Of a DNA stretch of 64,000 nt, positions 2,851-49,406 are shown piece after piece. Origin of the DNA: a virus (Duplodnaviria > Caudoviricetes). Below the pieces are notes generated by a model, which was not told where the DNA came from, ran no database searches, and saw only the letters and a list, made by a program, of their open reading frames with translations. The translations under genes were made by a program, and so were the position numbers. The stretch spans positions 3,295 through 67,294 of IMG/VR virus record IMGVR_UViG_3300012973_000013; one strand, written 5' to 3'. The first letter of the stretch is position 1. Each line of letters starts with the position of its first letter.

Positions 2851-3513
2851 CTAATGATCCGGGGATGCGTCTGATCTCACCGTGTAAGCGATGCGTCGAT
2901 GATGCTGGCAGTACGATGAGCCAACCTTGGCCTCGCCGCCGCAATAGCCAAAGTCGGCTTCGCGAGGATCGCCGATCGGCCATCGGCATGTGCGCAAGGT
3001 CAGATCCTGCACGTCGAATATTCTGGCGATACCGTGGCGGCGGTCGGTGTAGCCCGGTTCCGGCTTCACGCCGTCGATCGGCTTGCGCTTGAAGGTGAAT
3101 GCGATGTGCGGCGGGCGCTTGCCCGATGGCACGCTCACCGAAGCCGTCTTAATCCCCGCGTAGCCACCGACCGGGGCGCGGGCGAGCTTCAGGCCGGCCC
3201 GGGCGATGTAGCCGGCAACCTGCCCCTTGGTCATGCCGATCGCCGAGGCGATGGCGCGCGTGCTCTCACCAGCCTCGACCATCTCCCGGACCAGCGTGCA
3301 GCGATCCTCCGTCCAGACCGTGTTCGTCGGACCTCCCACCCGCCCACGGGGAGCAGCGCGAGGGTCGCCCTCACGACGACCGGCCTTGACGATTGCCATG
3401 ACGCGGCTGGCGTCGAGCGGATCGCCGAGGCGCTGGGAGATCACTGCCGGCTTGTACCCGCCGGCCCAGAGATTGAGCACGGCATCCGAATAGGGCGCCA
3501 GTCGCACAGTCAC
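2851..3513 (-). CDS. gcrA: GcrA-family transcription regulator
   Basis: WTEDRC...G.S.RAIA..IGMTKGQVAG helix-turn-helix and C-terminal LTLRTCRWPIGDP...FGYCG...YCQHHRRIAY. Confidence 0.85.
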   Translation of the reverse strand: MTVRLAPYSDAVLNLWAGGYKPAVISQRLGDPLDASRVMAIVKAGRREGDPRAAPRGRVGGPTNTVWTEDRCTLVREMVEAGESTRAIASAIGMTKGQVAGYIARAGLKLARAPVGGYAGIKTASVSVPSGKRPPHIAFTFKRKPIDGVKPEPGYTDRRHGIARIFDVQDLTLRTCRWPIGDPREADFGYCGGEAKVGSSYCQHHRRIAYTVRSDASPDH

Positions 3514-32605: not shown

Positions 32606-33043
32606 CTACACCGCCCGCCACACGTACTCGCCCTTCACCTTCTCCGCCGTCCTCGCCACCAGCTTGACGTCCTGACACTGCCGCAACGCCTTGCCGATGC
32701 GGCGGACGACGTCGTTCATCATGCGCCGGTCGCGTGCATCCTTCCCCTCCGTCCTCACCAGCGCCTCCGCCATCTGGCGGGACGTGGACGGCCCGTGCTC
32801 TCTGAGGTGGCCTAGCAGGAACTGGCGAAGCTCGCCGCGGTAGAACAGCACGACGCGGGGAACGCGCGCGGTGAGCTTCACGGGGCCATCGTAGCCGAGC
32901 GTTTCCAGCACCCTGTCCATGCTCTCCAGATCGTTTGAGAGCACGGCCAGGTGCTCCCGTGTCTGGGCTATGGCTTCCATCATCTCCTCACGCTTGCGGA
33001 GAAGGCCGGAGATCGTGTTCGCGTAAGACTCGTGGGCATTCAA
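32606..33043 (-). CDS. Coiled-coil + winged-helix passenger protein
   Basis: TISGLLRKREEM...DLESMDRVL...FYRGELRQF...GPSTSRQMAE. Confidence 0.65.
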   Translation of the reverse strand: MNAHESYANTISGLLRKREEMMEAIAQTREHLAVLSNDLESMDRVLETLGYDGPVKLTARVPRVVLFYRGELRQFLLGHLREHGPSTSRQMAEALVRTEGKDARDRRMMNDVVRRIGKALRQCQDVKLVARTAEKVKGEYVWRAV

Positions 33044-33082
33044 GGTGTAGCCTCCCTCTGTGCGTTGCCGGGGGAGGATGAC

Positions 33083-33286
33083 GTGCCGACCTTCAATTCC
33101 ACTGCGATCCGCAGCGCGGACTACACTCCGCACACCCGTACCTTGCGCCTCTGGTTCGTCGAGAGCGGCGGCCCATACGACTACTACGGCGTGCCGCAGC
33201 GCGTTTACGACGGGCTCCTTCGCGCGTCGTCTAAGGGAACGTACTTCAACGAGTACATCAGGGATCAGTACAGCGTGAACCGGTAG
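33083..33286 (+). CDS. KTSC domain protein
   Basis: STAIRSADY...LRLWF..GG.YDYYGVP..VYDGLLRASSKGTYFNEYIRDQY. Confidence 0.9.
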   Translation: MPTFNSTAIRSADYTPHTRTLRLWFVESGGPYDYYGVPQRVYDGLLRASSKGTYFNEYIRDQYSVNR

Positions 33287-33398
33287 CCGGCGGCCACCCT
33301 GCCACGGCGGCGCCGAGGCGGCCCATCATGCGAAAACCGGCCGGTTTCTGCCACTTTCGCCTTGGTGCTCTTGATACATAAGGCCGGGCTAATGCTCG

Positions 33399-33683
33399 CT
33401 ACCCGGCCGGCCGCTCGCACTCCTTGTCGACCAGCCGCGCATACCCGGCGATGTCCGACCAGTGGTCGTAGAAATGCGGATCGCCGGCGAGGATGCGGCC
33501 CAGCTTGCAGGCCATCATCTCCAGCGCGTCGGCCTCGACTGGCGTCAGGTCGCCCCAGTTCGGAGCCGCGCGGAACACCCGCTTGATCTCCTGCGTCACG
33601 GCCGCCTGCGTCGGATAGTGGCCGTGGGTTGAGCCGCGAACGGCGATCAGGCTGTCGGTGCCGGCATCGGACGCGTCAGTCAT
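33399..33683 (-). CDS. DUF6378-like protein
   Basis: RGSTHGHY...KLGRILAGDP...DHWSDIAGYARL. Confidence 0.7.
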   Translation of the reverse strand: MTDASDAGTDSLIAVRGSTHGHYPTQAAVTQEIKRVFRAAPNWGDLTPVEADALEMMACKLGRILAGDPHFYDHWSDIAGYARLVDKECERPAG

Positions 33684-34098
33684 CGCCGCCCTCCACGGCC
33701 AGGAACAGCACCGGCTTGCCGGCGGCGCGGAACGCCTTGATCTCCAGCCCGACGCCGTAGCTCTCGCGCCAGCCCTCCATCTGCACGACGATGATGCCGT
33801 GCGCGGCGTTCATCATCGGCTCGTCGAGCGGCATCCAGACGGAGTGATCGAGCGGATCGAGCCCGCCGTGGATCGCGACGGGATGGCTGTGGGCAATCGG
33901 TGAGAACACGGCGAGGCCCTGTTCGACGAGCCGCGCCGACACCTTGGCCGCCTCCTCGAACGCCGCGTTGATCCCGCGCGGATGTTTGGAGTAAACGGTG
34001 GCGAGGTACCAGAACGAACCAACATCGGAAAGTTCACTGACGGTGCGATGCAGCCCGCCATCGTCATAGATCATGACCGTCACTTTACATGCCCCCAA
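33676..34098 (-). CDS. DUF1937/DUF4406 nucleoside-2-deoxyribosyltransferase-like protein
   Basis: YLATVYS...VFSPIAHSH...GWRESYGVGLEI..F...GKPV. Confidence 0.72.
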   Translation of the reverse strand: MGACKVTVMIYDDGGLHRTVSELSDVGSFWYLATVYSKHPRGINAAFEEAAKVSARLVEQGLAVFSPIAHSHPVAIHGGLDPLDHSVWMPLDEPMMNAAHGIIVVQMEGWRESYGVGLEIKAFRAAGKPVLFLAVEGGDD

Positions 34099-34682
34099 TT
34101 CTTCCTGCTGCGCACGGCTGCTATGGCATGCGTTGAGACGCCATATCGAGCCGCCAAGTCGACGTGGCGATCACGAGATGCTCTTATTGCGATAACCTGA
34201 CTTTCCGTCAGGATTGATCCTGCATGCGCCTCGCCCAGCAGCACGGGAGGCGGCAACGCCGTTCCCGCGGCGACCCTATCGGCGTGGTTTTCTACGTCTG
34301 TCCCCAAGTAAAGATGGTCTGGGTTGACGCAGGATCGGGTATTACACTTGTGCAGGACGTGCATACCGGCCGGGATTTCACCTTGGAAGGCGACCCAAGC
34401 TGCACGGTTCCCGTCCATGCGCTTCATTCGGAAGGTCAGCTGCGGATAGCCCTTCCCGTTGAGGGACTTGACCCAGATCCAGCACCCGCAATGGGGCACC
34501 GGCATCGAGTTCATCCGAATGCGCTCGTCGAGCGGGACATGAACCGAAACAGGCGTGCGGTCGCCTGCGCTACCAAGAGGGTCGCCGTATTTGCGGGCCT
34601 TTGCGTAGTGCGCAGGGCAGTACAAGCCCTTCCAGACCGACTTGTCGCAGCCATCAACGGCGCATATACGAACTTCAGCCAT
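34080..34682 (-). CDS. HNH homing endonuclease
   Basis: CWIW...GYP...NRAAW...GEIP.GMHVLHKCNTRSCVNPDHLYLGT..EN; N-terminal CAVDGC...C..HY. Confidence 0.9.
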   Translation of the reverse strand: MAEVRICAVDGCDKSVWKGLYCPAHYAKARKYGDPLGSAGDRTPVSVHVPLDERIRMNSMPVPHCGCWIWVKSLNGKGYPQLTFRMKRMDGNRAAWVAFQGEIPAGMHVLHKCNTRSCVNPDHLYLGTDVENHADRVAAGTALPPPVLLGEAHAGSILTESQVIAIRASRDRHVDLAARYGVSTHAIAAVRSRKNWGHVK

Positions 34683-34760
34683 GCCGTGCGCTCCTACGCT
34701 CGGGGTGGTCAGGGCCGGAGCCGGTGTTGCAAGCACCGCTTCGGCCCGAATAGTATAGCG

Positions 34761-36038
34761 CTACACAGCACGTGCTGCACGCTTTTTTGTTGGCGGCAGA
34801 TTGACTTGCACGCGCCCATCCTCCCCGTTTTCTCGATGGATGGTGATCGAGACCAAAGATTTGCCGGACCCGTACTTGCCGGAGTGGAAAGCGTCGACTT
34901 CGGCCAGCGACCGGAAGCACTCGACGCGCACGCCCAGCACCTCTTGCACCCGCATGTGATGCAGGTGGCCGTGCAGGAACAGGCGATAGTCCGTCTCGCC
35001 CCAGTCCTCCCGGCACTCGGTAGCCATCGCCCCGGCCATCTCGGCCGGCTTCAGTCGGTGGCCGTGGTGGGCGCCGATGAGCGTGGAGCCGAAGCGGAAG
35101 AACCAGTAGTCGGCCTCGCCGCCCTCGATTCGGACCCGGCTATTGCCGCGGAAATGCTGCACGAGGGCGACGTAGAGCGTGATCCAAGCGTTCCGGTCGT
35201 GGTTGCCGCGCAGGACCTTGACGATGACCAGGGCGTGCTTTGCCAGAGCGCTGTAGATGCCCTCGATCGCGAGCTGGATGCCGCAGATGATGACGGGCAG
35301 TTGGGTGTCCGATACCTGCAGAACGTGCTTGCTGGTCGGCGTCATCGCCAGGTCGTCGTCGGCGTGCGTCCAGTCGCCCAGTTGGAGGATGAGCGCAGTG
35401 CCGCTGTCGGGTGATCGCGCGAAAAGGTTCGTGGCCGTGTCGCGCAGTCGATCGGCGGCTAGGGCGAGATCAAAGTCGCCCTCGCAGGCATCCGCCGTAG
35501 CCCGTAGGCCGAGATGCACGTCGGCCCACGGGTAGATAGTCAGGCGGTTCTCGTCGACCTCGCCGGGCGCCGGGATGTCAGGTGCGCGGCACTCCCACTC
35601 CGCCAGCGCCGCCTCGACGGCAGCGGTGACCTCGCCCGTGCTGACCGGGCCATCCTCCCGCGTCTTCACCCATTGCGCTGTGACGCGGCCGTCTGCGTCG
35701 AGCAGCGCGGACACGCCTTTGACGACGTGACCGGCAGGGACCGCGAACTCGTCGCCAGGCTCCGGCTTCTGCTGGACGAACTGGCGACGGACCTCGCCGT
35801 CCTCGCCCAACTCGGTCGTGCTGCGCGAGACCCGGAAGCCCGGCAGAATGGGTGCGTAGCCCATCAGGCCCCGCTCGGCGGCGCGGGCGAGCCGGCAGGC
35901 CAGCGTCTGCCTCGGGATGCCGGCTGCGAGGGCTGCTGCTGTGATTGATCCGTGCTGCCCTCGAAGCGCGACGGCCTCGGCGAGTTCTTCGTCGGTGAGC
36001 GGTTGCCCCCGAGCGTACGACTGCGTGGAATTGCTCAC
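34761..36038 (-). CDS. Calcineurin-like metallophosphoesterase with N-terminal HTH
   Basis: ADVHLG, LGDWTH, RGNHD, HHGH, HGHLHH; N-terminal GSITAAALAAGIPRQTL. Confidence 0.85.
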   Translation of the reverse strand: MSNSTQSYARGQPLTDEELAEAVALRGQHGSITAAALAAGIPRQTLACRLARAAERGLMGYAPILPGFRVSRSTTELGEDGEVRRQFVQQKPEPGDEFAVPAGHVVKGVSALLDADGRVTAQWVKTREDGPVSTGEVTAAVEAALAEWECRAPDIPAPGEVDENRLTIYPWADVHLGLRATADACEGDFDLALAADRLRDTATNLFARSPDSGTALILQLGDWTHADDDLAMTPTSKHVLQVSDTQLPVIICGIQLAIEGIYSALAKHALVIVKVLRGNHDRNAWITLYVALVQHFRGNSRVRIEGGEADYWFFRFGSTLIGAHHGHRLKPAEMAGAMATECREDWGETDYRLFLHGHLHHMRVQEVLGVRVECFRSLAEVDAFHSGKYGSGKSLVSITIHRENGEDGRVQVNLPPTKKRAARAV

Positions 36039-36063
36039 GCGAGTACTCCTGCGCGGGGATGGA

Positions 36064-36303
36064 TCAGAGGGCCTTGGTTGCCCACGAGGCGAGGCGATCA
36101 GCCATCGCGCCGATGAACAGCAGGAAGCCGCCGAGCGCCGCGTACGCCTTCCAGCCCCCTCGCGCGGCCACGATGGTGTCGCGGATCTCGCGCACCTCTG
36201 ACCGCATTTCCTTGATGCTCTCGCGGAGTTCACCGCGGTCGCGAGCGAGCGATTCCACGCGGGCTTCGATCGTCGCCAAACGCTCTTCAGGGGTCGGTGC
36301 CAT
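36064..36303 (-). CDS. Coiled-coil + C-terminal TM lysis-associated protein (XhlA/holin-like)
   Basis: ERLATIEARVESL coiled coil followed by a TM; located in the lysis cassette. Confidence 0.6.
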   Translation of the reverse strand: MAPTPEERLATIEARVESLARDRGELRESIKEMRSEVREIRDTIVAARGGWKAYAALGGFLLFIGAMADRLASWATKAL

Positions 36304-36332
36304 GCGGCGCCCTCCTTGCGAGTTGGAGGGTG

Positions 36333-36533
36333 TCAGCCCTTGGCGCGGAGCCGGGCTAGCATGGTCGTCACCACCCGATAGGCCGGAGGAGCGAGCGCGA
36401 GCAGACCGCCCCCGATCAGTTCGACGTCGGCGGCGTTGGCGTAGCCGCGCGAGGCGAGCCACACGCCAGCGGCGGTGATGGCGTAGCGGAGAAGCTGAGG
36501 CCAAAGGGCCTGCTGGGCAGCAGTCGGATCCAT
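36333..36533 (-). CDS. Putative holin (Pam3-gp28-like)
   Basis: QLLRYAITAAGVWLASRG...LIGGGLLAL; two TMs; downstream of the endolysin. Confidence 0.65.
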   Translation of the reverse strand: MDPTAAQQALWPQLLRYAITAAGVWLASRGYANAADVELIGGGLLALAPPAYRVVTTMLARLRAKG

Positions 36534-36618
36534 AGGATGTCCTTTCAGGTGGTGAGGTGGAGGATGCAGAGGATGGCAAGCAGCGCGGCCGTGGTGAGCG
36601 CCGCGACGCGCCAGACGC

Positions 36619-36846
36619 TCACGCCGGCCCGCGAGCACGCGCCTCGTTGAGCGCCGCCCACGTCTCGTCGGTGACGACGCCGGAAGGGTCGAGGGACGCG
36701 AGCCGCTGGACGTTGCGGACGGCCTGACCGGTCGCCTCGTCGAATTGGCCGGTGACCCGGACGACGTGCCCGGCGGCGCGTAGGGCGCGCTGGAGCTCGA
36801 CGACGTGAGGTCCGCAGTCGCCGTCTTCGAGGATGGGATGGGCCAT
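36619..36846 (-). CDS. Stand-alone peptidoglycan-binding domain protein
   Basis: L..GD.GPHVVELQRALRAAG...VTGQFDEATGQAVRNVQ...GVVTDETWAAL. Confidence 0.8.
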   Translation of the reverse strand: MAHPILEDGDCGPHVVELQRALRAAGHVVRVTGQFDEATGQAVRNVQRLASLDPSGVVTDETWAALNEARARGPA

Positions 36847-36848
36847 CG

Positions 36849-38477
36849 TCAGGCTTCGTTGATTGACAGTTCGTCCGACGAGCGCACGAGCGGCGCCGGC
36901 GCAGTCGGCAGGTCGAAGGTCGTCGGCCAGCGGAGACCGAGCAGCCGGTCGCTCGCCAGCCAGGCATCGGTGACGGCATCGCTCTGGTTGCCGCCGCGGA
37001 TCAGCAGCGCGCCATCCGGACGAACGGCCCGGACGAAGCCGACGTGGCCGGAGGTGCCTGACTTGGCGCCCCGCCAGAACACGGCGATGGCGCCGACGGC
37101 CGGCGTGTCCAGCGGCCGGCCGAACCGCAGCCAGTTGCGCGCGAGGTAGGGATTGGCCGGCAGCGGCTCGTCCGGCAGCGTCAGGCCGATGGCCGTCTCG
37201 ACGAAGTCGCCGCAGTTCCCGGTGACGATGGCGCCGCCGTTGGGGTCTCGGATGATGATCCGGCCCTGCGGGACCGACACGCAGTACATCTTCCCCGAGA
37301 ACTCACGCTGAGAGATGTGCTTTGGCTGGATGCGACGCGCACCTCGGTTCGGGCCAATGCGGACTTCCCAGCATTCGCGTGTCGACAACTGAGAACTCTT
37401 TTTGCCAACGGAGACGTTCCATCCCGCGAACACAGCGAGGGTAAACAAGGCGTCCTTCGCGCTGTCGCTGGACGTGTAGAGATGGATGCGGCTCTGGTTA
37501 TCGTTGCCATCGAAGATGGCGTAGGCTCGCAAAAACGTCTCCGCCTCGCGTGCGTTGAAAGAATGAAGGAACGCCGTCGACAGCGACTTGCCCTCGGCGA
37601 AGGCGACCGCAAAGAAGTCCGGGATGCCGAAGGTCAGAGTGGTCAGAGGGGCGTGAGAGAGCGGACCATACGCCCGCTTCGCGACGTAGCAGTGCGACGG
37701 ACCAAGGGCCATCAGCGCCGCGATCTTGCGGGCTCGGGAGACCTGAAAGCTGCACTTGCCGCGATGGAAGCTGCCGTCGGACATGAACGCTGCGAGGAAT
37801 ACGAGTTCCTCGTCGGACAGCCCGCAGCCGCCGCTTAACCGACGCGCATGGGAAATTCTGATCCCGCCGGAACCCATCTCGTCCAGCGTGCCGAAAGCAG
37901 GCGCTTCGCCGGCGCGCCACTCTCCCCACCACCGATGCCCGACGTCGCAAGTGAGTTGAAGCGAACGGTGGTCGATGTCGAAGACCTCCCCCTCGTAGTC
38001 CTTCGAGACCGGGATGTAGGTGGTGGGCGAAATCTCGCCCCCCTCGGACACTTGGTAGACGCGGCTGGCAGTCAGCGCATCAAGCCGTTGCCACCCTTCC
38101 TCCGTGAGGATCTCCGTCTCGCCAGTGAAGCACCAGGGCAGCTTGGACGGGTCGCCGAGCGTCGTGCCGTCCGACCGCAGCCACTCCGACAGTTCGATGC
38201 GGTTGCGGGTCTCATGCAGCCCGAGCCGGCGCGTCGCCTCGGCGTACCACGGGGCGGTGAGGCTCACGGATTTCGGCTCCGTCGAGACACCGAACAGAGC
38301 CTCCAGCGTCTTCGGCCCGATCGTGCCCGGCCACTGGATTGCGAGGCCGCGGTCGGCCTGAAACGCCGCCACGGCCCGGCGCGTCACGGCGCCGGCAACA
38401 CCGTCGGCACCCCACGGCCCCACGTCGTAGCCGAGCGAAATCAGGCGCCGCTGAACGGCGCGAATGTCGATCGTCAT
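36849..38477 (-). CDS. Endolysin (PG-binding + NlpC/P60-CHAP, TIGR02594-like) interrupted by an intein
   Basis: N-terminal PG_binding_1 (VQRRLISLGYDVG..GADGVAG..T); the extein join reconstitutes PW/CGDFV; later GHVGFV and GGNQSD. Confidence 0.9.
   Translation of the reverse strand: MTIDIRAVQRRLISLGYDVGPWGADGVAGAVTRRAVAAFQADRGLAIQWPGTIGPKTLEALFGVSTEPKSVSLTAPWYAEATRRLGLHETRNRIELSEWLRSDGTTLGDPSKLPWCFTGETEILTEEGWQRLDALTASRVYQVSEGGEISPTTYIPVSKDYEGEVFDIDHRSLQLTCDVGHRWWGEWRAGEAPAFGTLDEMGSGGIRISHARRLSGGCGLSDEELVFLAAFMSDGSFHRGKCSFQVSRARKIAALMALGPSHCYVAKRAYGPLSHAPLTTLTFGIPDFFAVAFAEGKSLSTAFLHSFNAREAETFLRAYAIFDGNDNQSRIHLYTSSDSAKDALFTLAVFAGWNVSVGKKSSQLSTRECWEVRIGPNRGARRIQPKHISQREFSGKMYCVSVPQGRIIIRDPNGGAIVTGNCGDFVETAIGLTLPDEPLPANPYLARNWLRFGRPLDTPAVGAIAVFWRGAKSGTSGHVGFVRAVRPDGALLIRGGNQSDAVTDAWLASDRLLGLRWPTTFDLPTAPAPLVRSSDELSINEA
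37215..38132 (-). mobile_element. 306-aa intein with LAGLIDADG-type homing endonuclease
   Basis: Starts CFTGETEILTEEGW; block B LTCDVGHRWW; endonuclease motifs LAAFMSDGS and FLRAYAIFDG; block F MYCVSVP; ends IVTGN before Cys+1. Confidence 0.92.
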
Positions 38478-38588
38478 TTTCACTCCGATTGGTTGGGGGA
38501 CGCAGTTGCGCTATCGTCCCGCGTGTGCCCCGATGCTCGAATGACATTGGTCGTTCGACTGGGGAACGCGCATAGAAGGGCGGTCGAG

Positions 38589-38942
38589 ATGAGCAACGAG
38601 GACCAGAAGCGGGCGAACACCACAGCGTTTCGGAACATGCTCGCTCATGCGGCTACTAGCGACAAACAAATGCCGCTGGACTTTCTTGGTATAACCTATT
38701 CACTTGCAAGCATCGAACCAGAGCCTGGTATGTGGTATTTTGCGTCCAGTTGCCCGACTTGCAGACGGGATACGCCTCTACTCGAGGACCCGTCTAAGGG
38801 CGCGCTAGGAAACCCATTCAGCGGGGCGGGCGCAGTTCTTGTTGCTTGCGTATTTTGCGGGAACGAGGTGCGGGCTGGTAGCCAGGACATTCGTCCCACA
38901 CAATGGCACGTCGCTCGGGCTGCTCCGTCAACGACACGGTGA
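38589..38942 (+). CDS. Zn-ribbon moron protein
   Basis: CPTC...CVFC; opposite strand to the late operon; AT-richer. Confidence 0.6.
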   Translation: MSNEDQKRANTTAFRNMLAHAATSDKQMPLDFLGITYSLASIEPEPGMWYFASSCPTCRRDTPLLEDPSKGALGNPFSGAGAVLVACVFCGNEVRAGSQDIRPTQWHVARAAPSTTR

Positions 38943-39069
38943 TATCGCCCGCGGCGTCCCGCGTGTGCGGGGGATGCACCGATGGCCGAGGCCACGGAGG
39001 GGCGGCGATGCTCGGCTACCCGATCGACGTGGCGAGGGAAGAGGCTGAGGTACGGGCAAGGGGGCTGCC

Positions 39070-39714
39070 ATGAAACGTGCGGCGATTCGAAAGTGCAGGG
39101 ACCGGCTACACAGCGCCAGCACCAAATTGCAGGCTCTGCGCGAAGCCACGTCACAGCAGGCATTTAAAGTCTCGTGGATCGACTTCCTATTTCACTCCAA
39201 AGGCATCTACGATACCCTAAGGAAGGGAGCCGAAGGGTTCCCGGCTTCGGTAGAATGGGCAACAGGTAAGTACAACGCACGACTTGGCGACCCCCTCCTC
39301 AACTATATGGTGGAGGCCCGGAACGACGAAGAGCACGGACTCGGATCGTCACTGGAGCTTCAGCCCGAGCGCCACGAATTCGGCTTTGGTGGGGGTGGCT
39401 TCAGTGGCGGTGTGAGGCTCGACGGCGGGCAATTCAGAAACGTTATCGCATCTGGCCCGGTATTGTTCACCGGGCCGCTGCCGGCTGGAACTCGGGTAAG
39501 ATCACTCGATGGGCGGCCGGTGCAAGTGCGCTCAACGCCGGCCACGATTATGCTCATCCCGGTCACGCCTAGGCGCGGGCCGCCTATACCACCTCCAGGC
39601 CAACATCTTGGACAACCATTGACAGACGCCTCGCCACTCGCAGTGGCCGAACTGTTCTTGGTATATCTCGAAACGCTGGTCGCAGAAGCGGGCGGGCTGG
39701 TGCAGAGCGGCTGA
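39070..39714 (+). CDS. Hypothetical moron protein
   Basis: 214-aa ORF opposite to the late operon, AT-richer; LNYMVEARNDEEH motif. Confidence 0.65.
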   Translation: MKRAAIRKCRDRLHSASTKLQALREATSQQAFKVSWIDFLFHSKGIYDTLRKGAEGFPASVEWATGKYNARLGDPLLNYMVEARNDEEHGLGSSLELQPERHEFGFGGGGFSGGVRLDGGQFRNVIASGPVLFTGPLPAGTRVRSLDGRPVQVRSTPATIMLIPVTPRRGPPIPPPGQHLGQPLTDASPLAVAELFLVYLETLVAEAGGLVQSG

Positions 39715-39736
39715 TCTTGACCTTCGGGAACCCGCT

Positions 39737-40516
39737 TCAACTGCAGCGAGCGAGGATCTGACGGCTCACCAGCTCGCCATAGTCCGTGTTCGCGTGGGCG
39801 CAGCTTCCCTCGGCGCAGTACTCCGGCAGCAGATAACCGTCGCTGTCGCACGCTTCCTCCGGCGAGGGGATCACGTCGATGCCCTTTCGTGCACAGTGCT
39901 CGGCGAACAGGCTGGAGTGCAGCCGGTACAGCTTCAGGCGAACCGCCGGGCTCGCGATATCCACCGGATTGCCGCCGGTGAATTCGTCGTCAAGGTTCGC
40001 CTTGACGTAGGCATTGGATCTTGGCGGCGGCGGAGACTGCACGTGGACCACGGGAACGCCGCTGTGCTCGGCGATGAGGTCCAACAGCATCAGTTGCGCC
40101 TTGATGCGGTAGCTTAGCGTCATCTTGATCGCGGCGAACGGGATGATCTCCGCGGCACTATCCACCTGCGACGCACTGTCCCCGACGCCGTCGTAAAAAT
40201 CGAACGGCCGCGAATGATCCGAGATCGCCATGGCGAGGTGGGCATTACCGCCGATCGCACAGAACAGGCTGCCGGCCGGCGTGGCGTCCGGTGCACCACC
40301 GACACACACGATCCCCCGGCCGGCGTCGCCTTGCAGGAGCCGATCGACCAATCCGCCCATCACCTCCCGCACCTCGGATCCGATGCCGTCGAACCGCGGG
40401 AAGCACTTGCTCTCGCGGATGACCACGCCCCGGAACGCCGCTTCTTCGAGCCGTTGCGCTCCGCTCAGGATGGCCTTGGCGTGGCTATTGCCGATTACGG
40501 GGACCCTGGGATGCAT
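39737..40516 (-). CDS. SGNH/GDSL-like hydrolase-fold protein
   Basis: VIGNSHA (block I-like) and C-terminal HANTDYG (block V-like). Confidence 0.5.
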   Translation of the reverse strand: MHPRVPVIGNSHAKAILSGAQRLEEAAFRGVVIRESKCFPRFDGIGSEVREVMGGLVDRLLQGDAGRGIVCVGGAPDATPAGSLFCAIGGNAHLAMAISDHSRPFDFYDGVGDSASQVDSAAEIIPFAAIKMTLSYRIKAQLMLLDLIAEHSGVPVVHVQSPPPPRSNAYVKANLDDEFTGGNPVDIASPAVRLKLYRLHSSLFAEHCARKGIDVIPSPEEACDSDGYLLPEYCAEGSCAHANTDYGELVSRQILARCS

Positions 40517-40582
40517 CGTCTGCCCCTGTGGCGCACAAAGCGCCGGGGTTTGAGCGTAAGTCCGAAGATCACCGCTGCGCAA

Positions 40583-40798
40583 CTACTCGTCATCGTCCGG
40601 CCAGACACAGTCGGCGAGCGGGCGGGTCGGCATGGTGGCGAGCATGGCGTGATGCTGCTCGTGTGCCGGGTCGTCGAGGACGCGCGCCGGCAGGGCGTAA
40701 TCGCCGTCTGCGAGCAGGCGCGGCTCTAGCGCGGCGCCGGCGTCCGTCGGGCCGCGCACCGTCTCGGCGGTCGACGGGTCGAGGATAAGCATCAGCAT
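40583..40798 (-). CDS. Small tail-fibre-associated protein
   Basis: ALEPRLLADGDYALPARVLDDPAH; follows the fibre genes. Confidence 0.5.
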   Translation of the reverse strand: MLMLILDPSTAETVRGPTDAGAALEPRLLADGDYALPARVLDDPAHEQHHAMLATMPTRPLADCVWPDDDE

Positions 40799-41592
40799 CA
40801 GATTGCCCCGATGTGGTCGAGCCAGCCGCCGATAATGGCGTGCAGATCGGAGACGTTCTGCGCCGTCAGTCCGGCGCCGAAGCCCGCTGCAGCGACGTGC
40901 CGGGCGCTGAACAGGGTGCCGGCGCCGCAGATCCTCATCGTGGCGCTGGGGATCGCCACCGACGCGACGGCCTGCGGCGTGAGAAGCGTAGCGCCCCGGA
41001 AATTCGCCGCCTCGTTGGAGGCTACCCGCGACCAGCCATAGAGCCCCAGGCTGTCGGCAAACGTGTCGGTGACGCTTCCCGTCGTCGTGTTCGTTCGGCT
41101 GGTCTGCGCCGTCACGCTGCGCCCGATGAGCCGGCAGCCTGTGCCGTTGCCGATATCCGCCGTGGCAGCTGCACTGTCCGTCAACGACCACACCCAGATT
41201 GCGGCGCTGTTGAGGGTGTAGTGCCCGCCAGCGGTGCTTGGATTGATGCCGGTGTCAAAATAGGACGTCGCGCCATCGCCGGCGAAATAGCGGTCCGTCA
41301 CAACCGTCGGGGTATTTGTCGGCGTCAGCAGCGTGCCGGCCGGCGCGACAAGGTTGACGCGGCTCGCCGCTGCCGAGTGCTGCGGGATGTAGATGCTGTC
41401 ATGCTTCGACCACAGCCCCGCCGCGACGAGCGGCTTGACGAGGATGCGGTCCATATCGGCGAGGCGCTGGCTGCGAGCCGGCGAACCCGCAGCGACGAAC
41501 GCTCGCTGGACTCGGTGCGTCTCGATCGACAGAGCCGGCGGCCGACCGTAACCGGCGGCGATGGGGTAGCCGAGGCCCAGCGCGAGCGTCAT
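40798..41592 (-). CDS. Tail fibre/receptor-binding accessory protein (beta-sandwich)
   Basis: LVAAGLWSKHD...VNLVAP...FAGDGATSYFDTGINPS; Thr/Ala/Gly-rich. Confidence 0.6.
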   Translation of the reverse strand: MTLALGLGYPIAAGYGRPPALSIETHRVQRAFVAAGSPARSQRLADMDRILVKPLVAAGLWSKHDSIYIPQHSAAASRVNLVAPAGTLLTPTNTPTVVTDRYFAGDGATSYFDTGINPSTAGGHYTLNSAAIWVWSLTDSAAATADIGNGTGCRLIGRSVTAQTSRTNTTTGSVTDTFADSLGLYGWSRVASNEAANFRGATLLTPQAVASVAIPSATMRICGAGTLFSARHVAAAGFGAGLTAQNVSDLHAIIGGWLDHIGAI

Positions 41593-42254
41593 GCTGCAGC
41601 CGTCCCCTCGGACACCACCCACGCCGTCGCGGCGTTGATGTTGTCGATCGAGACGGTGCCGTTCTGCTTGGCCACCCGGTCGTCGCCGCTGTATTGAAAC
41701 GTGATTGTCGCGCCGGAGCCAGCCGCGAGAATGACCGCGCCGGCCCCCATCCGGCGGATCAGCATCGACCAGCCGCGTGCGATCGTGCTCGGGAATGTGA
41801 GCGTTACCGTCGAGGCGCTATTGACCACGAGCGCTTTGCCGAGATGCGTGTCGCCAATCGTCGTGTTCTCGGTAATGTCGACGATCGAGCTAGGCGCCCG
41901 CGTCGGGCCGCGCATGGACTTGCCCGCCGGCCATGTCCCGGACGCTTTCGGGCCGTAGAGGATGATCGCCTCGTTGTCGTCGTCGTAGCCGATTGCGAAA
42001 TCGCCATTGTTGGCGAAACCGTTGGACGGCGCGGACGCCCCGACAGCATAGACCCCTCGTCCCCGCAGCGACCGGCCTGCAGGCCAGCCCTCGGCCGTCT
42101 TCGGGCCGTAGATCAGGGCGACCTCGCCGGAGACGTACTGGATGCCGTAATCCCCGACGAGCCCGTCGTCGATTGTCGGCGCCGCCGTCAATTCGATGAC
42201 GCCACGCCCATCTCGGCCGACGGTCGTGACCGCAATCGCTACTGCATCGCTCAT
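41589..42254 (-). CDS. Tail fibre-associated protein
   Basis: Internal repeat GDYGI...IYGPK..EGWP.G.SLRG / GDFAI...LYGPK..GTWP.G.SMRG. Confidence 0.6.
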   Translation of the reverse strand: MSDAVAIAVTTVGRDGRGVIELTAAPTIDDGLVGDYGIQYVSGEVALIYGPKTAEGWPAGRSLRGRGVYAVGASAPSNGFANNGDFAIGYDDDNEAIILYGPKASGTWPAGKSMRGPTRAPSSIVDITENTTIGDTHLGKALVVNSASTVTLTFPSTIARGWSMLIRRMGAGAVILAAGSGATITFQYSGDDRVAKQNGTVSIDNINAATAWVVSEGTAAA

Positions 42255-45649: not shown

Positions 45650-48487
45650 TCAGGCCCAGAGCGATGGCGCTTCGTCGACCAGCTCGAGGTCCCACGTCAG
45701 ATCGTCAGCAGGCACCGCCGCCGCGATGATGCAGCGCCGCGCCGGGACCACGCCGGACGTCACGAGACAGCCGGCCACGAGGGTGTCGCCGGGGTCATCA
45801 AACGGCGTGGCGAAGTCGATGCGGTTCCGGTCGGCGCCGGACGGGCCACCCTCGACGGTCAGGATCGTGCCGTCCGTCAGGCGGATCGACACGACGAGTG
45901 GCGTCGACAGCCCGAACAGCGAGGTATCGCCGTCGAACATCGGATCATCCGGGTCCTCGCCGAAGAACGGCTCCTCCGGGTCACCCTCGGGGAACATCGG
46001 ATCGTCTGGATCGTCACCGAAGAACGGCTCGTCGGCATCAAGGCCGTCCTCGCCGAACAGCGGTCCCGCGATCTTCTCGTGGATCATGTCGTCGAGAAGC
46101 AGCGACGTGATCTGGTCGCTGGTGTTGACTTCCTTCGAGACCACCCTGCCCTGACTGACGTACCGGGCGACGATATCGCTCTGCAGCGCCACCAGATCCC
46201 CGCGTCGGCAGGTCAGCGCCTCGACGGGCGCCCGCAGCCGGTAGGTCCGGGAACGGAGCCGGGATTGCTTCAGGTCGAACGCTGCCCGCGCCTCGACGAG
46301 CGACTGTTTCGTCAGGCCGTCGTAGGTGATTTCCTCAAAGATCGACGCCGCGACATTGCCGCCGGAGCCGTCGGCGTTGTAGCCCTCGTCATAGACGGTG
46401 ACGAACGTCTCGCGGTAGTCCATAGCCTCGGCCCGGAACCGGGCGATGAACGCGTGTGGCCGAGCCGGGAACACCTTGCTGATGGCGTGATCCGCCGTGT
46501 TCCGGTGCGACAGCAACTGCACCGGAGCGTCGCCGCTGCGGTCCTTGTCCTCGATGACGCCCCAGATCTCCGACTTGTACGGCCGGGCGTAGCCGGCAGC
46601 CGCAATCAGCCCAAGCGCAGCATCGACACTCATTCCGCTCAGGACGGCGGAGATCTCCAGCCCGTCCGTGGCGCAGCGGTCCCGCCACGCCAGCAGCGCC
46701 GCATTGTCGACCCTAGCCTCTGGCAGAGTGCGGGCGTTGAGAGGCCCACGCAGCACGTCGCGGAAGTGCGGCGCCGGGTTCTTCGTCGTCTTCCAGTCCG
46801 TCCACGCCTCGTCTTCGTCGTCCCAGTCCCGGACGTAGCCCGAGAACAGTGCCGTCACCGGCTGGACGTTGCGGTTTTTTGCCTTGATCGCGATCAATGC
46901 GCAGCCGGTGCCGTTCACCGGAGGCGAGTTCCGCACCGAGGAAATCCGGGCGACATGCGCAGCCTGATAGAGGCCGAGTTGCGTCCGCGGCGCCTTGTGG
47001 ACACCGGTGTCCGTCCAGTAGTCGAACAGGGTCGGCGCCGACGTGCCGGTGTAGCCATCCGTGACATAGCCTGCCGGGTCGCCAACGCCAGAGCCGTCAG
47101 AACCGACGCGGGTGATCGAACCCTTCTTGATCTCGATGTCATAGATGGCCTTGTCGAAACCGGCTCCGGTCTGGAGATAGACGATCGCCTCGTGGCGCTT
47201 CAGGATCAGGTTCTGGACGCCGGTCGCGCCGTAGTTCGTGGCGTCGACATAGCGGGCGCCGGAGCCGCCGTAGAAGTGGCTATCCGCCTCCCAATCGTTC
47301 GGACCGGACAGAGCGCCGACCTGCGTGAAAGCCTGTCGGAAGCCGCGATCATCAGGCGGGGCCGTGGGGGTAGGCGCGCTATCCCACACGATTTTCACGC
47401 AGCGCCGAACCATTCCCGAGCGGCGGTTGACGATGTGAAGTTCGGGGAGGTTGATCCATGTGCTGTCGCCGCGCTCGCGGATGCGGATGCGAAGCGGCAA
47501 CACCATGAAGTTGTTGACCGATGTATCTCCTGATGTGTCGTAGATACCCTCGGGAAACATGAAGTTGATCCAGATTTCGTCGCAGGACATCCGTGAGGTA
47601 AAAGCGTGCCACTGCGGCGCCGCTGCACTCGGGTTGCTCTGGTCGATAAGGACCTGTGGTTCCTCGTCATCTGTCCTGAAGCCCGTCAATTCGACGGTTG
47701 GAGCCTCGGTGTGCGCGTAGCGCGTGATCAGGGAGAGCGGCTCGTCATCGTTCCAGCCCTCGCGGGTCTGGACGTTGAAATCCTCGATACGATCCTCGTC
47801 GACATCGCCGACCCGGATCGCCTCGATCTTGTGCGGGCCGGCGAGGCCGTAGACGACCTCGACGAACTCGTCGTCGCCGCGAAGCTCGATCAGCGGCTGC
47901 GTCAGAGCCGGCGGGGCGAACCGCAACGACCCCACGACGCGCGGAAGTGGGCCGCCCGGGGCCGCGACGTTGGCCGAGGCCGAGGCCGTGCCGCCCTTTT
48001 CGCGGTCCGGCGACTGCATGGAAGCCGGAGGCGGAGCGAGTGCGGAGACAGCAAGCCCGCCGGCAAGGCCGACCGCCGCGCCAGCAGCCGTCGCGCCCCA
48101 TGTGCCGGCAGCAAAACCCTCGCCCAGAAGAGCGAGGCCGGCCGGGCCGAGCGCTCCACCGGAGACAGCTGCCGCTGCAATCACGACCGCCAGCGACGCG
48201 ACCGTCGTCAGGACGTTTTTGGCGCCACCACCGCCACGACCGCCACCACCAGGGACGAGGCGGAGCACCACTTTCGTGCCCGCTTTCGGACGGACGAGCC
48301 GCCAGAAATCCCGGTCGATCGGGGCCCCGTTCAGATAGGCGGTGCCGACCTCCAGGAACCGGGCGTGCGGCAGGCTGCCGAACAGCGCAGCGCAATCAGC
48401 CAGCGTTTTCCCGGCCGGGATCGCTGCCGTAATCCCCTCCGTCGAGAAAGGATCACGCGACCAGGTCGCCTCGAACGTGGCGATCAT
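45650..48487 (-). CDS. Central tail/host-specificity protein (GpI-GpJ-like)
   Basis: N-terminal ubiquitin-like GpI region and TM-like stretch, GGPLPRVVG, TKNPA...RGD.V.L; start trimmed to MIATFE. Confidence 0.8.
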   Translation of the reverse strand: MIATFEATWSRDPFSTEGITAAIPAGKTLADCAALFGSLPHARFLEVGTAYLNGAPIDRDFWRLVRPKAGTKVVLRLVPGGGGRGGGGAKNVLTTVASLAVVIAAAAVSGGALGPAGLALLGEGFAAGTWGATAAGAAVGLAGGLAVSALAPPPASMQSPDREKGGTASASANVAAPGGPLPRVVGSLRFAPPALTQPLIELRGDDEFVEVVYGLAGPHKIEAIRVGDVDEDRIEDFNVQTREGWNDDEPLSLITRYAHTEAPTVELTGFRTDDEEPQVLIDQSNPSAAAPQWHAFTSRMSCDEIWINFMFPEGIYDTSGDTSVNNFMVLPLRIRIRERGDSTWINLPELHIVNRRSGMVRRCVKIVWDSAPTPTAPPDDRGFRQAFTQVGALSGPNDWEADSHFYGGSGARYVDATNYGATGVQNLILKRHEAIVYLQTGAGFDKAIYDIEIKKGSITRVGSDGSGVGDPAGYVTDGYTGTSAPTLFDYWTDTGVHKAPRTQLGLYQAAHVARISSVRNSPPVNGTGCALIAIKAKNRNVQPVTALFSGYVRDWDDEDEAWTDWKTTKNPAPHFRDVLRGPLNARTLPEARVDNAALLAWRDRCATDGLEISAVLSGMSVDAALGLIAAAGYARPYKSEIWGVIEDKDRSGDAPVQLLSHRNTADHAISKVFPARPHAFIARFRAEAMDYRETFVTVYDEGYNADGSGGNVAASIFEEITYDGLTKQSLVEARAAFDLKQSRLRSRTYRLRAPVEALTCRRGDLVALQSDIVARYVSQGRVVSKEVNTSDQITSLLLDDMIHEKIAGPLFGEDGLDADEPFFGDDPDDPMFPEGDPEEPFFGEDPDDPMFDGDTSLFGLSTPLVVSIRLTDGTILTVEGGPSGADRNRIDFATPFDDPGDTLVAGCLVTSGVVPARRCIIAAAVPADDLTWDLELVDEAPSLWA

Positions 48488-48900
48488 GCCAGCGCGTCGT
48501 GCCTGTAGATACCGACGATCCGGTGCCGCAGCGCCCGGTCGTCCATGCGCATGATGGTCGACAAGGACGCCTCCTGCGCGTGCAGCACCAAGCCCGGCGA
48601 GACGACGATTCCGACGTGCGCCGGAAGCCGGCGATCCGTCATCACGACAACATCGAGCGGACGTTCCGCCCCGGCCGGCACCAGCGTCGTCCACGGCGGG
48701 ATCAACAGGGCCTCGCCGATCCGGCGCAGCACCCGGTGCAGATCGTCTGCCGCCACCGTGTCGTGGCTCGGCAGGTCGATGCCGGCGACGTCGCGGTAGA
48801 TCAGCCTCGTCAGCCCCCAGCAGTCGACGCCGCTCCGATCACGGCCGCCGCTCACAAACGGCAGCCCGACGTAGCGCTCCGCCCAGCGAGTGCCGGTCAA
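48484..48900 (-). CDS. Tail-associated NlpC/P60 peptidase
   Basis: YVGLPFVSGGRDRSGVDCWGL...HVGIVV...LHA. Confidence 0.9.
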   Translation of the reverse strand: MTGTRWAERYVGLPFVSGGRDRSGVDCWGLTRLIYRDVAGIDLPSHDTVAADDLHRVLRRIGEALLIPPWTTLVPAGAERPLDVVVMTDRRLPAHVGIVVSPGLVLHAQEASLSTIMRMDDRALRHRIVGIYRHDALA

Positions 48901-49406
48901 AGGAACAGCCCCGGCGCCATGTCCTGCGTCGCTAGCGTTTTGGGCCACGGCTCGGCGCCGTAGTCCCGGAGGATCAGCGACCCGCCAACCATCTCCGACG
49001 TGATTTCGATCTCGACGAATTCCAGGTCACCGGCCTCGTATTCGACGTCTGGCGTTCCCGTCGGTGTCCGCGGATCCACCGTCAGGTCGAAGTCGCCGCT
49101 GTCGTAGATCCGGGCCGTCACCGTGGGAGAGCCGGTCAGACCCTCCACAGCTAGGCCGACGCGGCGGTCGACGTTCTGAACCGACAGCCGGGCCTCTGGC
49201 GTCCCGTCCGTGTCGGAGACCAATTCGATCTGAAACGGTGCGCCGAAGTAGCGCTCACCGCCGATGAGGAAATCCCTCGTGTCGTTGATGACCCGGATCG
49301 GCTTATCCAGTTCATCGTGCTCGAAGATCAGCGCGACCAGCACGATACGGCCGGAGGCTTCCGCCTCGATCGCTCGGCGGAAGCTGTTCGTAATCGGGCG
49401 GGGCAT
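48897..49406 (-). CDS. DUF1833-family minor tail protein
   Basis: EH.ELDKPIRVINDTRD...PFQIEL...ARLSVQNVDR. Confidence 0.8.
   Translation of the reverse strand: MPRPITNSFRRAIEAEASGRIVLVALIFEHDELDKPIRVINDTRDFLIGGERYFGAPFQIELVSDTDGTPEARLSVQNVDRRVGLAVEGLTGSPTVTARIYDSGDFDLTVDPRTPTGTPDVEYEAGDLEFVEIEITSEMVGGSLILRDYGAEPWPKTLATQDMAPGLFL

Follow-up and report, generated by a model that had tools for sequence, protein, structure and literature searches.

We analysed a 64,000-nucleotide stretch of DNA from a tailed virus (Duplodnaviria; Caudoviricetes), positions 3,295 to 67,294 of IMG/VR record IMGVR_UViG_3300012973_000013, here called the window. Its minus strand carries a gene for a predicted cell-wall lysin that is interrupted by an insert of 306 codons, which an initial annotation had described as a full intein seated at the catalytic cysteine of the enzyme. 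The features of the locus are as follows.

36849-38477, minus strand: lysin precursor gene, 542 aa from the ATG at 38477, stop codon at 36849-36851
38133-38477, minus strand: N-extein, with PG_binding_1, then a linker and then ~45 residues from the start of the TIGR02594/CHAP catalytic domain; its last residues are ...GDPSKLPW
37215-38132, minus strand: predicted intein, 306 aa, from Cys1 (38130-38132) to Asn306 (37215-37217), recognised by fold, relatives and motifs
38091-38132, minus strand: splicing block A, CFTGETEILTEEGW; Cys1 invariant in 86 relatives
37923-37952, minus strand: splicing block B, TCDVGHRWWG, with Asp63 (B:7), His66 (B:10, invariant) and Trp68 (B:12)
37347-37835, minus strand: predicted LAGLIDADG homing-endonuclease domain, intein residues ~100-262, from the secondary structure of the model and matches to I-DmoI and PI-SceI
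37773-37805, minus strand: LAGLIDADG motif 1, LVFLAAFMSDG
37506-37535, minus strand: LAGLIDADG motif 2, FLRAYAIFDG
37248-37292, minus strand: splicing block F, KMYCVSVPQGRIIIR; Cys284 at F:4 (37281-37283), invariant in 86 relatives; no F:13 His
37215-37223, minus strand: end of block G, Thr304-Gly305-Asn306, reading ..IVTGN and followed by Cys+1; penultimate Gly, not His
37212-37214, minus strand: Cys+1, C-extein nucleophile of the intein and, after splicing, predicted catalytic Cys of the peptidase
36852-37214, minus strand: C-extein, the remainder of the papain-like domain (Pfam CHAP, 5e-7), with columns invariant against intein-less relatives
37044-37046, minus strand: predicted catalytic His in GHVGF, within the C-extein
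36984-36995, minus strand: conserved GGNQ, within the C-extein

An insert at the predicted catalytic cysteine

The minus-strand open reading frame (ORF) extends over 36849-38483 (544 aa) if a GTG two codons before the ATG is counted as the start. Because GGAG sits 5 nt upstream of the ATG at 38477, that ATG is likely the start of the lysin precursor, and the public gene call for this protein (P0002, 542 aa) begins there too. When the junctions were placed by script, PW|CFTGET fell at residue 118 and VTGN|CGDFV at residue 423 (numbering from the GTG), and the insert was exactly 306 aa long; the length and the coordinates 37215-38132 given in the initial annotation were reproduced. Removal of the insert joined the flanks as ...GDPSKLPW-CGDFVETAI... 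and gave a spliced product of 236 aa.

The flanks were assigned to known domain families. Pfam placed PG_binding_1 at residues 6-63 of the N-extein (E 8.4e-12). On the precursor, the Pfam CHAP match began at residue 421 and scored 30.8 bits against a cut-off of 26; on the genome it starts at the Cys+1 codon. The NCBIfam model TIGR02594 matched the precursor through its C-terminal half only (profile 58-132), and because the insert splits this match the score of 53.3 bits lay under the cut-off of 70.55. These matches suggest that the lysin is a papain-like peptidase of the TIGR02594/CHAP type (NlpC-P60 clan) with an N-terminal PG_binding_1 domain, and peptidoglycan hydrolysis is its predicted activity. 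To our knowledge, the bond cut by TIGR02594 proteins is not established.

To place the catalytic residues, we compared the spliced sequence with intein-less relatives. W115, C116, H172 and the GGNQ block were invariant in all 40 of them. In an AlphaFold model of the closest intein-less allele (P0175; pLDDT 89.7), C116 was the first residue of a helix (116-127) and H172 started a strand (171-179). Structural alignment of residues 72-217 of this model with VIA-align gave Z scores of 9.6-11.9 to NlpC/P60 enzymes (Acd24020, CwlO, LytE, MepS, RipA) and CHAP enzymes (LysK CHAPK, LysGH15, Tse1); Foldseek on the same allele gave a weak match, with E = 3e-3 only. The family profile aligned the +1 Cys with the Cys of CSSFV in CwlO and the His of GHVG with the GHVG of that enzyme. 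The invariance of the cysteine, its position at the helix start in the model and the alignment with CwlO upheld the proposal that the intein sits at the catalytic cysteine and that Cys+1 is also the predicted papain-like nucleophile of the peptidase.

The intein cuts the catalytic domain about 45 residues in, directly at the nucleophile. Most inteins at active sites leave the precursor inactive. Since the papain-like domain is here cut in two at the start of the nucleophile helix, we safely infer that the unspliced precursor is very probably inactive, in line with the earlier suggestion of a lysin that is inactive until spliced.

The insert itself was related to other inteins. It matched phage inteins in tblastn with E values down to 1e-14, and 876 clusters related to it came up when 1.84 billion representatives were scanned exhaustively with HMMER, 53 of them with E<=1e-30. 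An AF2 model built on an alignment of 86 sequences reached a pLDDT of 96.7 and a pTM of 0.93, and its best Foldseek matches were the TliVMA, PhoVMA, PI-SceI and PI-PfuI inteins (E 8e-13 to 3e-8, probability 1.00). The middle domain of the model matched I-DmoI, I-Tsp061I and PI-SceI; it has the pseudo-dimeric alpha-beta-beta-alpha-beta-beta-alpha arrangement, and its two LAGLIDADG helices each end in an acidic residue. C1, H66, C284, G305 and N306 were invariant across the 86 relatives, C+1 was kept in 83/85, and the endonuclease aspartates D119 and D208 were kept in 85/86. Every invariant or nearly invariant position of this alignment is present in the window copy, which by its sequence does not look degenerate, and the endonuclease looks active. 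The modelled fold, the relatives and the motifs together identify the insert as a PI-SceI/TliVMA-type intein with a predicted LAGLIDADG endonuclease. The earlier claim of a full intein is carried by that fold, by the relatives, by the intact C1/H66/N306/C+1 residues and by the LAGLIDADG domain.

Empty alleles and spread of the intein

A search for intein-less alleles, which the initial annotation had put forward as a check, was successful: aligned at PW/CG, the alleles read ...LPW|CGDFVETAI... without interruption. Among 50,697 phage records searched by tblastn, the lysins of Rhizobium phage RR1-A, Roseobacter phage RDJL6 and three others matched both flanks within about 670-690 nt, with no space for an insert, and no record covered >=80% of the precursor. 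Alignment with the RR1-A and RDJL6 lysins required one gap, of precisely 306 residues, which falls between a W and a C that are both invariant. When short relatives were sought with the C-extein, at least 849 proteins of about 225-245 aa that lack the intein were retrieved. Many of these are named TIGR02594 or NlpC/P60 family proteins and come from genomes of Hyphomicrobiales (Xanthobacteraceae, Ancylobacter, Microvirga, Bosea, Methylopila), which suggests Hyphomicrobiales as the host group of this 66% G+C phage. The exact in-frame insertion, absent from orthologues, is real and far beyond chance.

The closest empty allele, P0175, is a metagenomic protein of 236 aa that is 85% identical over the N-extein, 95% over the C-extein and 90% overall. 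With an unbroken catalytic domain it matched TIGR02594 at 71.4 bits against the cut-off of 70.55 (profile 1-132, residues 76-211). Because a lysin this similar lacks the intein, the intein is evidently dispensable. P0175 is encoded on three contigs (L003-L005), which have nothing but the lysin gene in common with the window; L003 is ENA k141_26693. Comparison of L003 with window positions 33000-42000 showed the lysin gene alone in common (80-88% nucleotide identity), with unrelated flanking genes. As the flanks are unrelated, the lysin gene moves as a mosaic module, of which there are forms that carry the insert and forms that lack it.

The DNA around the insertion site was the best conserved of the gene, with a core of ..TGG|TGCG....TTCG.. 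in 29 alleles; the empty site in the L003:3923-4633 region reads ..CCGTGG|TGCGGCGAT... Over the 33 codons 3' of the intein site (37115-37214, minus strand, against L003:4268-4367), 3/32 synonymous positions differed, compared with 64/181 elsewhere in the gene (Fisher p = 0.003). A tract of near-identity on one side of a homing site could be a trace of recombination or co-conversion.

To assess the distribution of the intein, we read its flanking residues in the best 150 of the 876 representative clusters (50% identity). In about 95 of these 150 the intein lies at a (P/A/x)(W/Y)|C...GN|C(G/A/S)xF site of CHAP-like proteins. Their hosts begin with near relatives of the window lysin, continue with CHAP proteins whose link to it phmmer no longer detects, and end with CHAP-containing proteins of 1072 and 1525 aa. 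Such lysin inteins appear to form a large population, common in uncultured phages, that always sits at the catalytic cysteine. The initial annotation had presented lytic enzymes as unusual intein hosts; with about 95 of the best 150 clusters carrying the intein at the same kind of site, this rarity did not hold, and the insertion is common in the family, an outcome that the initial annotation had itself listed as refuting its reading.

The histories of intein and host gene were only loosely coupled. Clustering at 90% gave 28 further lysins with the intein, at 39-55% identity. The closest relative of the window intein, at 48% identity, is found in lysins that are 36-55% identical over the C-extein, and the closest relatives of the window lysin (60-95%) have no intein. 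Identities of inteins and of exteins, compared pair by pair, correlated only weakly (Spearman rho 0.32). In IMG/VR the intein was found in 0/27 related lysin loci, and the genomic contexts of two other intein carriers were phage-like. The patchy distribution, the decoupled identities, the conserved endonuclease residues and the placement in the most conserved site DNA mark the element, as far as sequences can tell, as a selfish homing intein that invades and is lost, and not as a fixed regulatory device.

Related inteins were also seen outside lysins. Sister inteins with C1, Cys at F:4 and a penultimate Gly interrupt RecT at ..AK|C...CGN|CAEA.. in P0107, P0137 and P0161 and in about 45 further representative clusters, and others lie in family A DNA polymerase (PolA), a Toprim primase and an SNF2 helicase. 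Two phage matches (H7 and H13) seemed to span the extein and were rejected when they proved to be inteins in other genes. Within the record itself, a second NlpC/P60 domain (PF00877, 40.5 bits) at 48508-48867 on the minus strand is uninterrupted. It lies inside an ORF (48484-48948) that adjoins a J-like protein in the tail module and resembles a tail-tip protein of the lambda gpK type; this paralogous cysteine peptidase has remained free of the intein.

Splicing, lysin role and lysis timing

The explanation that we favour, with good confidence, is that the element is a selfish LAGLIDADG intein, a constitutively splicing passenger of a probable endolysin gene that has spread by homing, and not a regulator. 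A mobile intein with a LAGLIDADG endonuclease would have invaded the lysin gene between the invariant Trp and the catalytic Cys, where the most conserved DNA would give the homing endonuclease a stable target and where imprecise deletion would kill the enzyme. Judged by its residues, the intein probably excises and ligates its exteins. Splicing would open with an attack of Cys1 and/or the block-F Cys on the N-junction, followed by transfer of the acyl group to Cys+1 and cyclisation of Asn306. Ligation of ...LPW to CGDFV... would then restore a normal lysin of 236 aa, in which the former +1 cysteine serves as the nucleophile, and homing would spread the element among divergent CHAP-type phage lysin genes. 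Lysis timing would probably be unaffected by the intein.

Several points weigh against this explanation. Splicing, endonuclease activity and peptidoglycan hydrolysis are all predicted. Pfam returned nothing on the insert at E up to 10, its intein, Hint and LAGLIDADG models included. The NCBIfam model intein_Nterm (TIGR01445) gave a sub-threshold match at residue 118 (E = 0.06, 14.3 bits against a cut-off of 24.5), and phmmer of the insert against PDB sequences reached E = 1.2 at best. The G:6 His is absent, replaced by a Gly305 that is invariant in the 86 relatives, and the F:13 His is absent too; since both His usually assist Asn cyclisation, efficient splicing is not to be assumed. No clear holin was found beside the lysin gene by hydrophobicity and PHROG, and the small downstream ORFs at 36333-36638 and 36064-36579 had no PHROG match and weak hydrophobic stretches. 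The record is about 80% complete.

Because Pfam was blank and intein_Nterm reached only E = 0.06, the identity of the intein was based on fold, relatives and motifs. The initial annotation had named a failure to align with Hint domains as evidence against an intein. Such a failure occurred with Pfam and the sequence models; the HINT fold was found by AF2 and Foldseek. The misses are a limit of the curated intein models, here Pfam Intein_splicing/Hint and TIGR01445/TIGR01443, not of the identity of the intein. A penultimate His is usual in inteins, not obligatory. Other phage inteins are able to splice with Gly at this position (PMC5050341, PMC7891396), and the AceL NrdHF intein, which lacks both the G:6 and the F:13 His, splices in minutes (PMC7891396).

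The missing penultimate and F:13 His, the failure of the Pfam models and the incomplete record could also be signs of a splicing-dead intein in a decaying or non-functional lysin, with lysis carried out by another enzyme, possibly encoded in the missing ~20% of the genome. We consider this very improbable. The ORF is open through all 542 codons, all invariant and nearly invariant positions of the 86 relatives are kept, the catalytic residues of the extein are intact, and no other lysin family was detected in the record. The His-less signature is lineage-wide and occurs in the fast-splicing AceL NrdHF intein as well (PMC7891396). Given that all conserved residues are intact, a pseudogene was rejected.

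The intein had initially been proposed to act as a redox- or metal-sensitive lysis timer. Splicing would then be conditional or slow and would serve as a post-translational check on lysis: Cys1, Cys284 and Cys+1 would be sensitive to oxidation or zinc, and active lysin would appear late. The lineage keeps these three cysteines with few or no exceptions, the block-F Cys of class 3 inteins lies between both junctions (PMC7891396), and the window lysin is the only candidate endolysin found in the record. There is a precedent in the class 3 DnaBi1 intein of M. smegmatis, which is reversibly inhibited by H2O2 through a disulfide of the catalytic Cys (PMC6195587); a further report describes inhibition of the same intein by zinc (PMC7360933). 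We found no sequence sign that would set such a timer apart from constitutive splicing, and the 90%-identical lysin, together with at least 849 further short relatives, does without the intein. The distribution is patchy and decoupled from the extein, and a conserved endonuclease is what one would expect if the element is a mobile parasite, not if it has been domesticated as a switch.

In the classical view, endolysin builds up in the reducing cytoplasm in fully active form and lysis is timed by the holin, which speaks against an oxidation-sensitive check. Because the holin sets the time, splicing would matter for timing only if it were slower than the late period. The proposed timer found no support in these data, and we regard it as quite unlikely. 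We give a similarly low chance to slow or conditional splicing as a lysis brake when it is taken together with the related idea of a lineage intermediate between class 1 and class 3, in which splicing could start from Cys1 or from the block-F Cys. A selfish, constitutively splicing passenger remains the preferred explanation.

The role of the enzyme was assessed from the rest of the record. Searches of the rest of the 67-kb record for Phage_lysozyme, SLT, Amidase_2 and M15_4 domains found none; a search for GH108 was uninformative, as its controls were silent as well. The only other NlpC/P60 domain belongs to the gpK-like tail ORF. The window lysin is the sole candidate endolysin found in the ~80%-complete record, and it is the probable endolysin of the phage.

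The gene could instead encode a virion-associated (tail) peptidoglycan hydrolase used at infection, which would leave the intein story unchanged. It lies a short way downstream of tail J-like and tail-fibre genes, its C-extein matches phrog_1259 ('baseplate hub subunit and tail lysozyme'), and relatives of the intein occur in CHAP proteins of 1072 and 1525 aa. A clear holin is missing nearby, and for this reason we use 'endolysin' rather than 'virion-associated lysin' as the probable and not the settled term. In contrast, a 236-aa two-domain product with N-terminal PG_binding_1 is the usual build of modular Gram-negative endolysins (compare AP3gp15, 5nm7), PHROG endolysin families match the N-extein, and about 1.2 kb that includes an opposite-strand ORF separates the lysin from the tail genes. 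A tail role is thus unlikely, although somewhat less so than a lysis timer.

The 1.2-kb stretch (38484-39736) that parts the lysin from the tail genes is a gap in the late operon of the minus strand; it contains a plus-strand ORF at 39070-39714 (214 aa; phrog_23516, unknown function) in a moron-like arrangement. On the other side of the lysin gene, outside the intein, lies one more feature.

36619-36846, minus strand: 75-aa ORF with a PG_binding_1-like domain only, matched over its full length by PHROG endolysin families

This ORF, whose start lies 2 nt past the stop of the lysin gene, may have been left behind by an exchange of lysin modules, or it may encode a separate protein that binds the wall.

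Inteins are regarded as residents of replication, repair and packaging genes. The lineage described here points to a large intein population in phage cell-wall hydrolases, of which we found no description in the searchable literature: no paper on an intein in a lysin, endolysin, CHAP protein or peptidoglycan hydrolase was found in the searchable full texts, where intein passages concerned other genes. According to Payne & Hatfull (PMC3314691), no intein interrupts any of 224 mycobacteriophage LysA genes. The intein is a textbook kind of element, and it is its class of host gene that is absent from the searchable literature. The source names of proteins in the lineage are 'hypothetical protein' or absent. 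Since the Pfam intein, Hint and LAGLIDADG models are blank despite a PI-SceI-like fold, automatic annotation will miss such inteins; standard domain models overlook the lineage, the lysins carry annotations as hypothetical or CHAP proteins of excessive length, and pipelines that mine for lysins would assign them a wrong size or drop them. With the nucleophile as the +1 residue, enzyme activity would directly report splicing. For phage biology the most probable answer is mundane, a selfish element tolerated by a lysin.

Comparison with known systems

The best match of the family profile among the sequences of solved structures was the AceL NrdHF intein (6ZGQ; E 2.5e-6), in which the Cys124 region aligned with the C284 region of the window lineage. 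AceL NrdHF is an experimentally proven class 3 split intein from a putative phage contig (PMC7891396). The window intein shares its block F/G signature C(V/L)xVP...VV....VTGN, in which F:4 is Cys, G:5 is Thr, G:6 is Gly and the F:13 His is missing. AceL NrdHF differs in its Ala1, its Met at B:12 and its Ser+1; it is a naturally split intein and carries no endonuclease in frame. In the window intein, Cys1 is invariant, B:12 is Trp, the +1 residue is Cys and a LAGLIDADG domain is present.

The window copy has the full W-C-T triplet (W68, C284, T304). Because B:12 is W in 35/86 relatives and F in 35/86, and G:5 is T in 45/86, the triplet is not a constant of the lineage. Some class 3 inteins may retain a Ser at position 1. 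The operational definition of class 3 requires that position 1 hold no Cys, Ser or Thr nucleophile (PMC7891396). With Cys1 present in the window intein and invariant in 86/86 relatives, membership of class 3 was rejected. The joint invariance of Cys1 and the block-F Cys suggests that both matter, and an intein with Cys1 together with the class 3 block-F Cys would be a natural test case for the origin of class 3 splicing.

The PI-SceI (yeast VMA1), TliVMA, PhoVMA and PI-PfuI inteins (PDB 1VDE, 7QSS, 7QSU, 7QST, 1DQ3) resemble the window intein in their HINT fold with a LAGLIDADG domain between blocks B and F. Cys1, the block-B His, the terminal Asn, a +1 nucleophile and insertion into a conserved active site are common to both. 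The folds agree at TM 0.56-0.64 (Foldseek), yet sequence identity is only 8-14%. The window intein has no extra DNA-recognition region, carries Gly before the terminal Asn and has Cys instead of Asp at F:4; its host is a cell-wall peptidase, while those of the PI-SceI type are an ATPase or a polymerase.

A further parallel is the intein of mycobacteriophage Bethlehem gp51 (RDF), one of several phage class 1 inteins that lack the penultimate His; it is likewise phage-borne and has a LAGLIDADG domain, Cys1 and a penultimate Gly (PMC5050341). That Gly is functional, and its replacement by His made the precursor accumulate (PMC5050341). The Bethlehem intein differs in its host protein and its site.

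On the side of the host enzyme, the spliced lysin would share its fold, the Cys at a helix start and the His on the GHVG strand with TIGR02594/CHAP/NlpC-P60 peptidases of solved structure (CwlO 8WT3, LytE 8I2D, Acd24020 7CFL, LysK CHAPK 4CSH, Tse1 4EOB). Unlike the window lysin, none of the solved or characterised members of these families is interrupted by an intein. Some phage lysin genes are interrupted by group I introns, as in lysK of staphylococcal phage K and in Streptococcus thermophilus phages, and removal of the intron gives the intact enzyme. These introns leave at the RNA level, whereas the window intein would leave at the protein level, so that a full-length, inactive precursor protein would be made.

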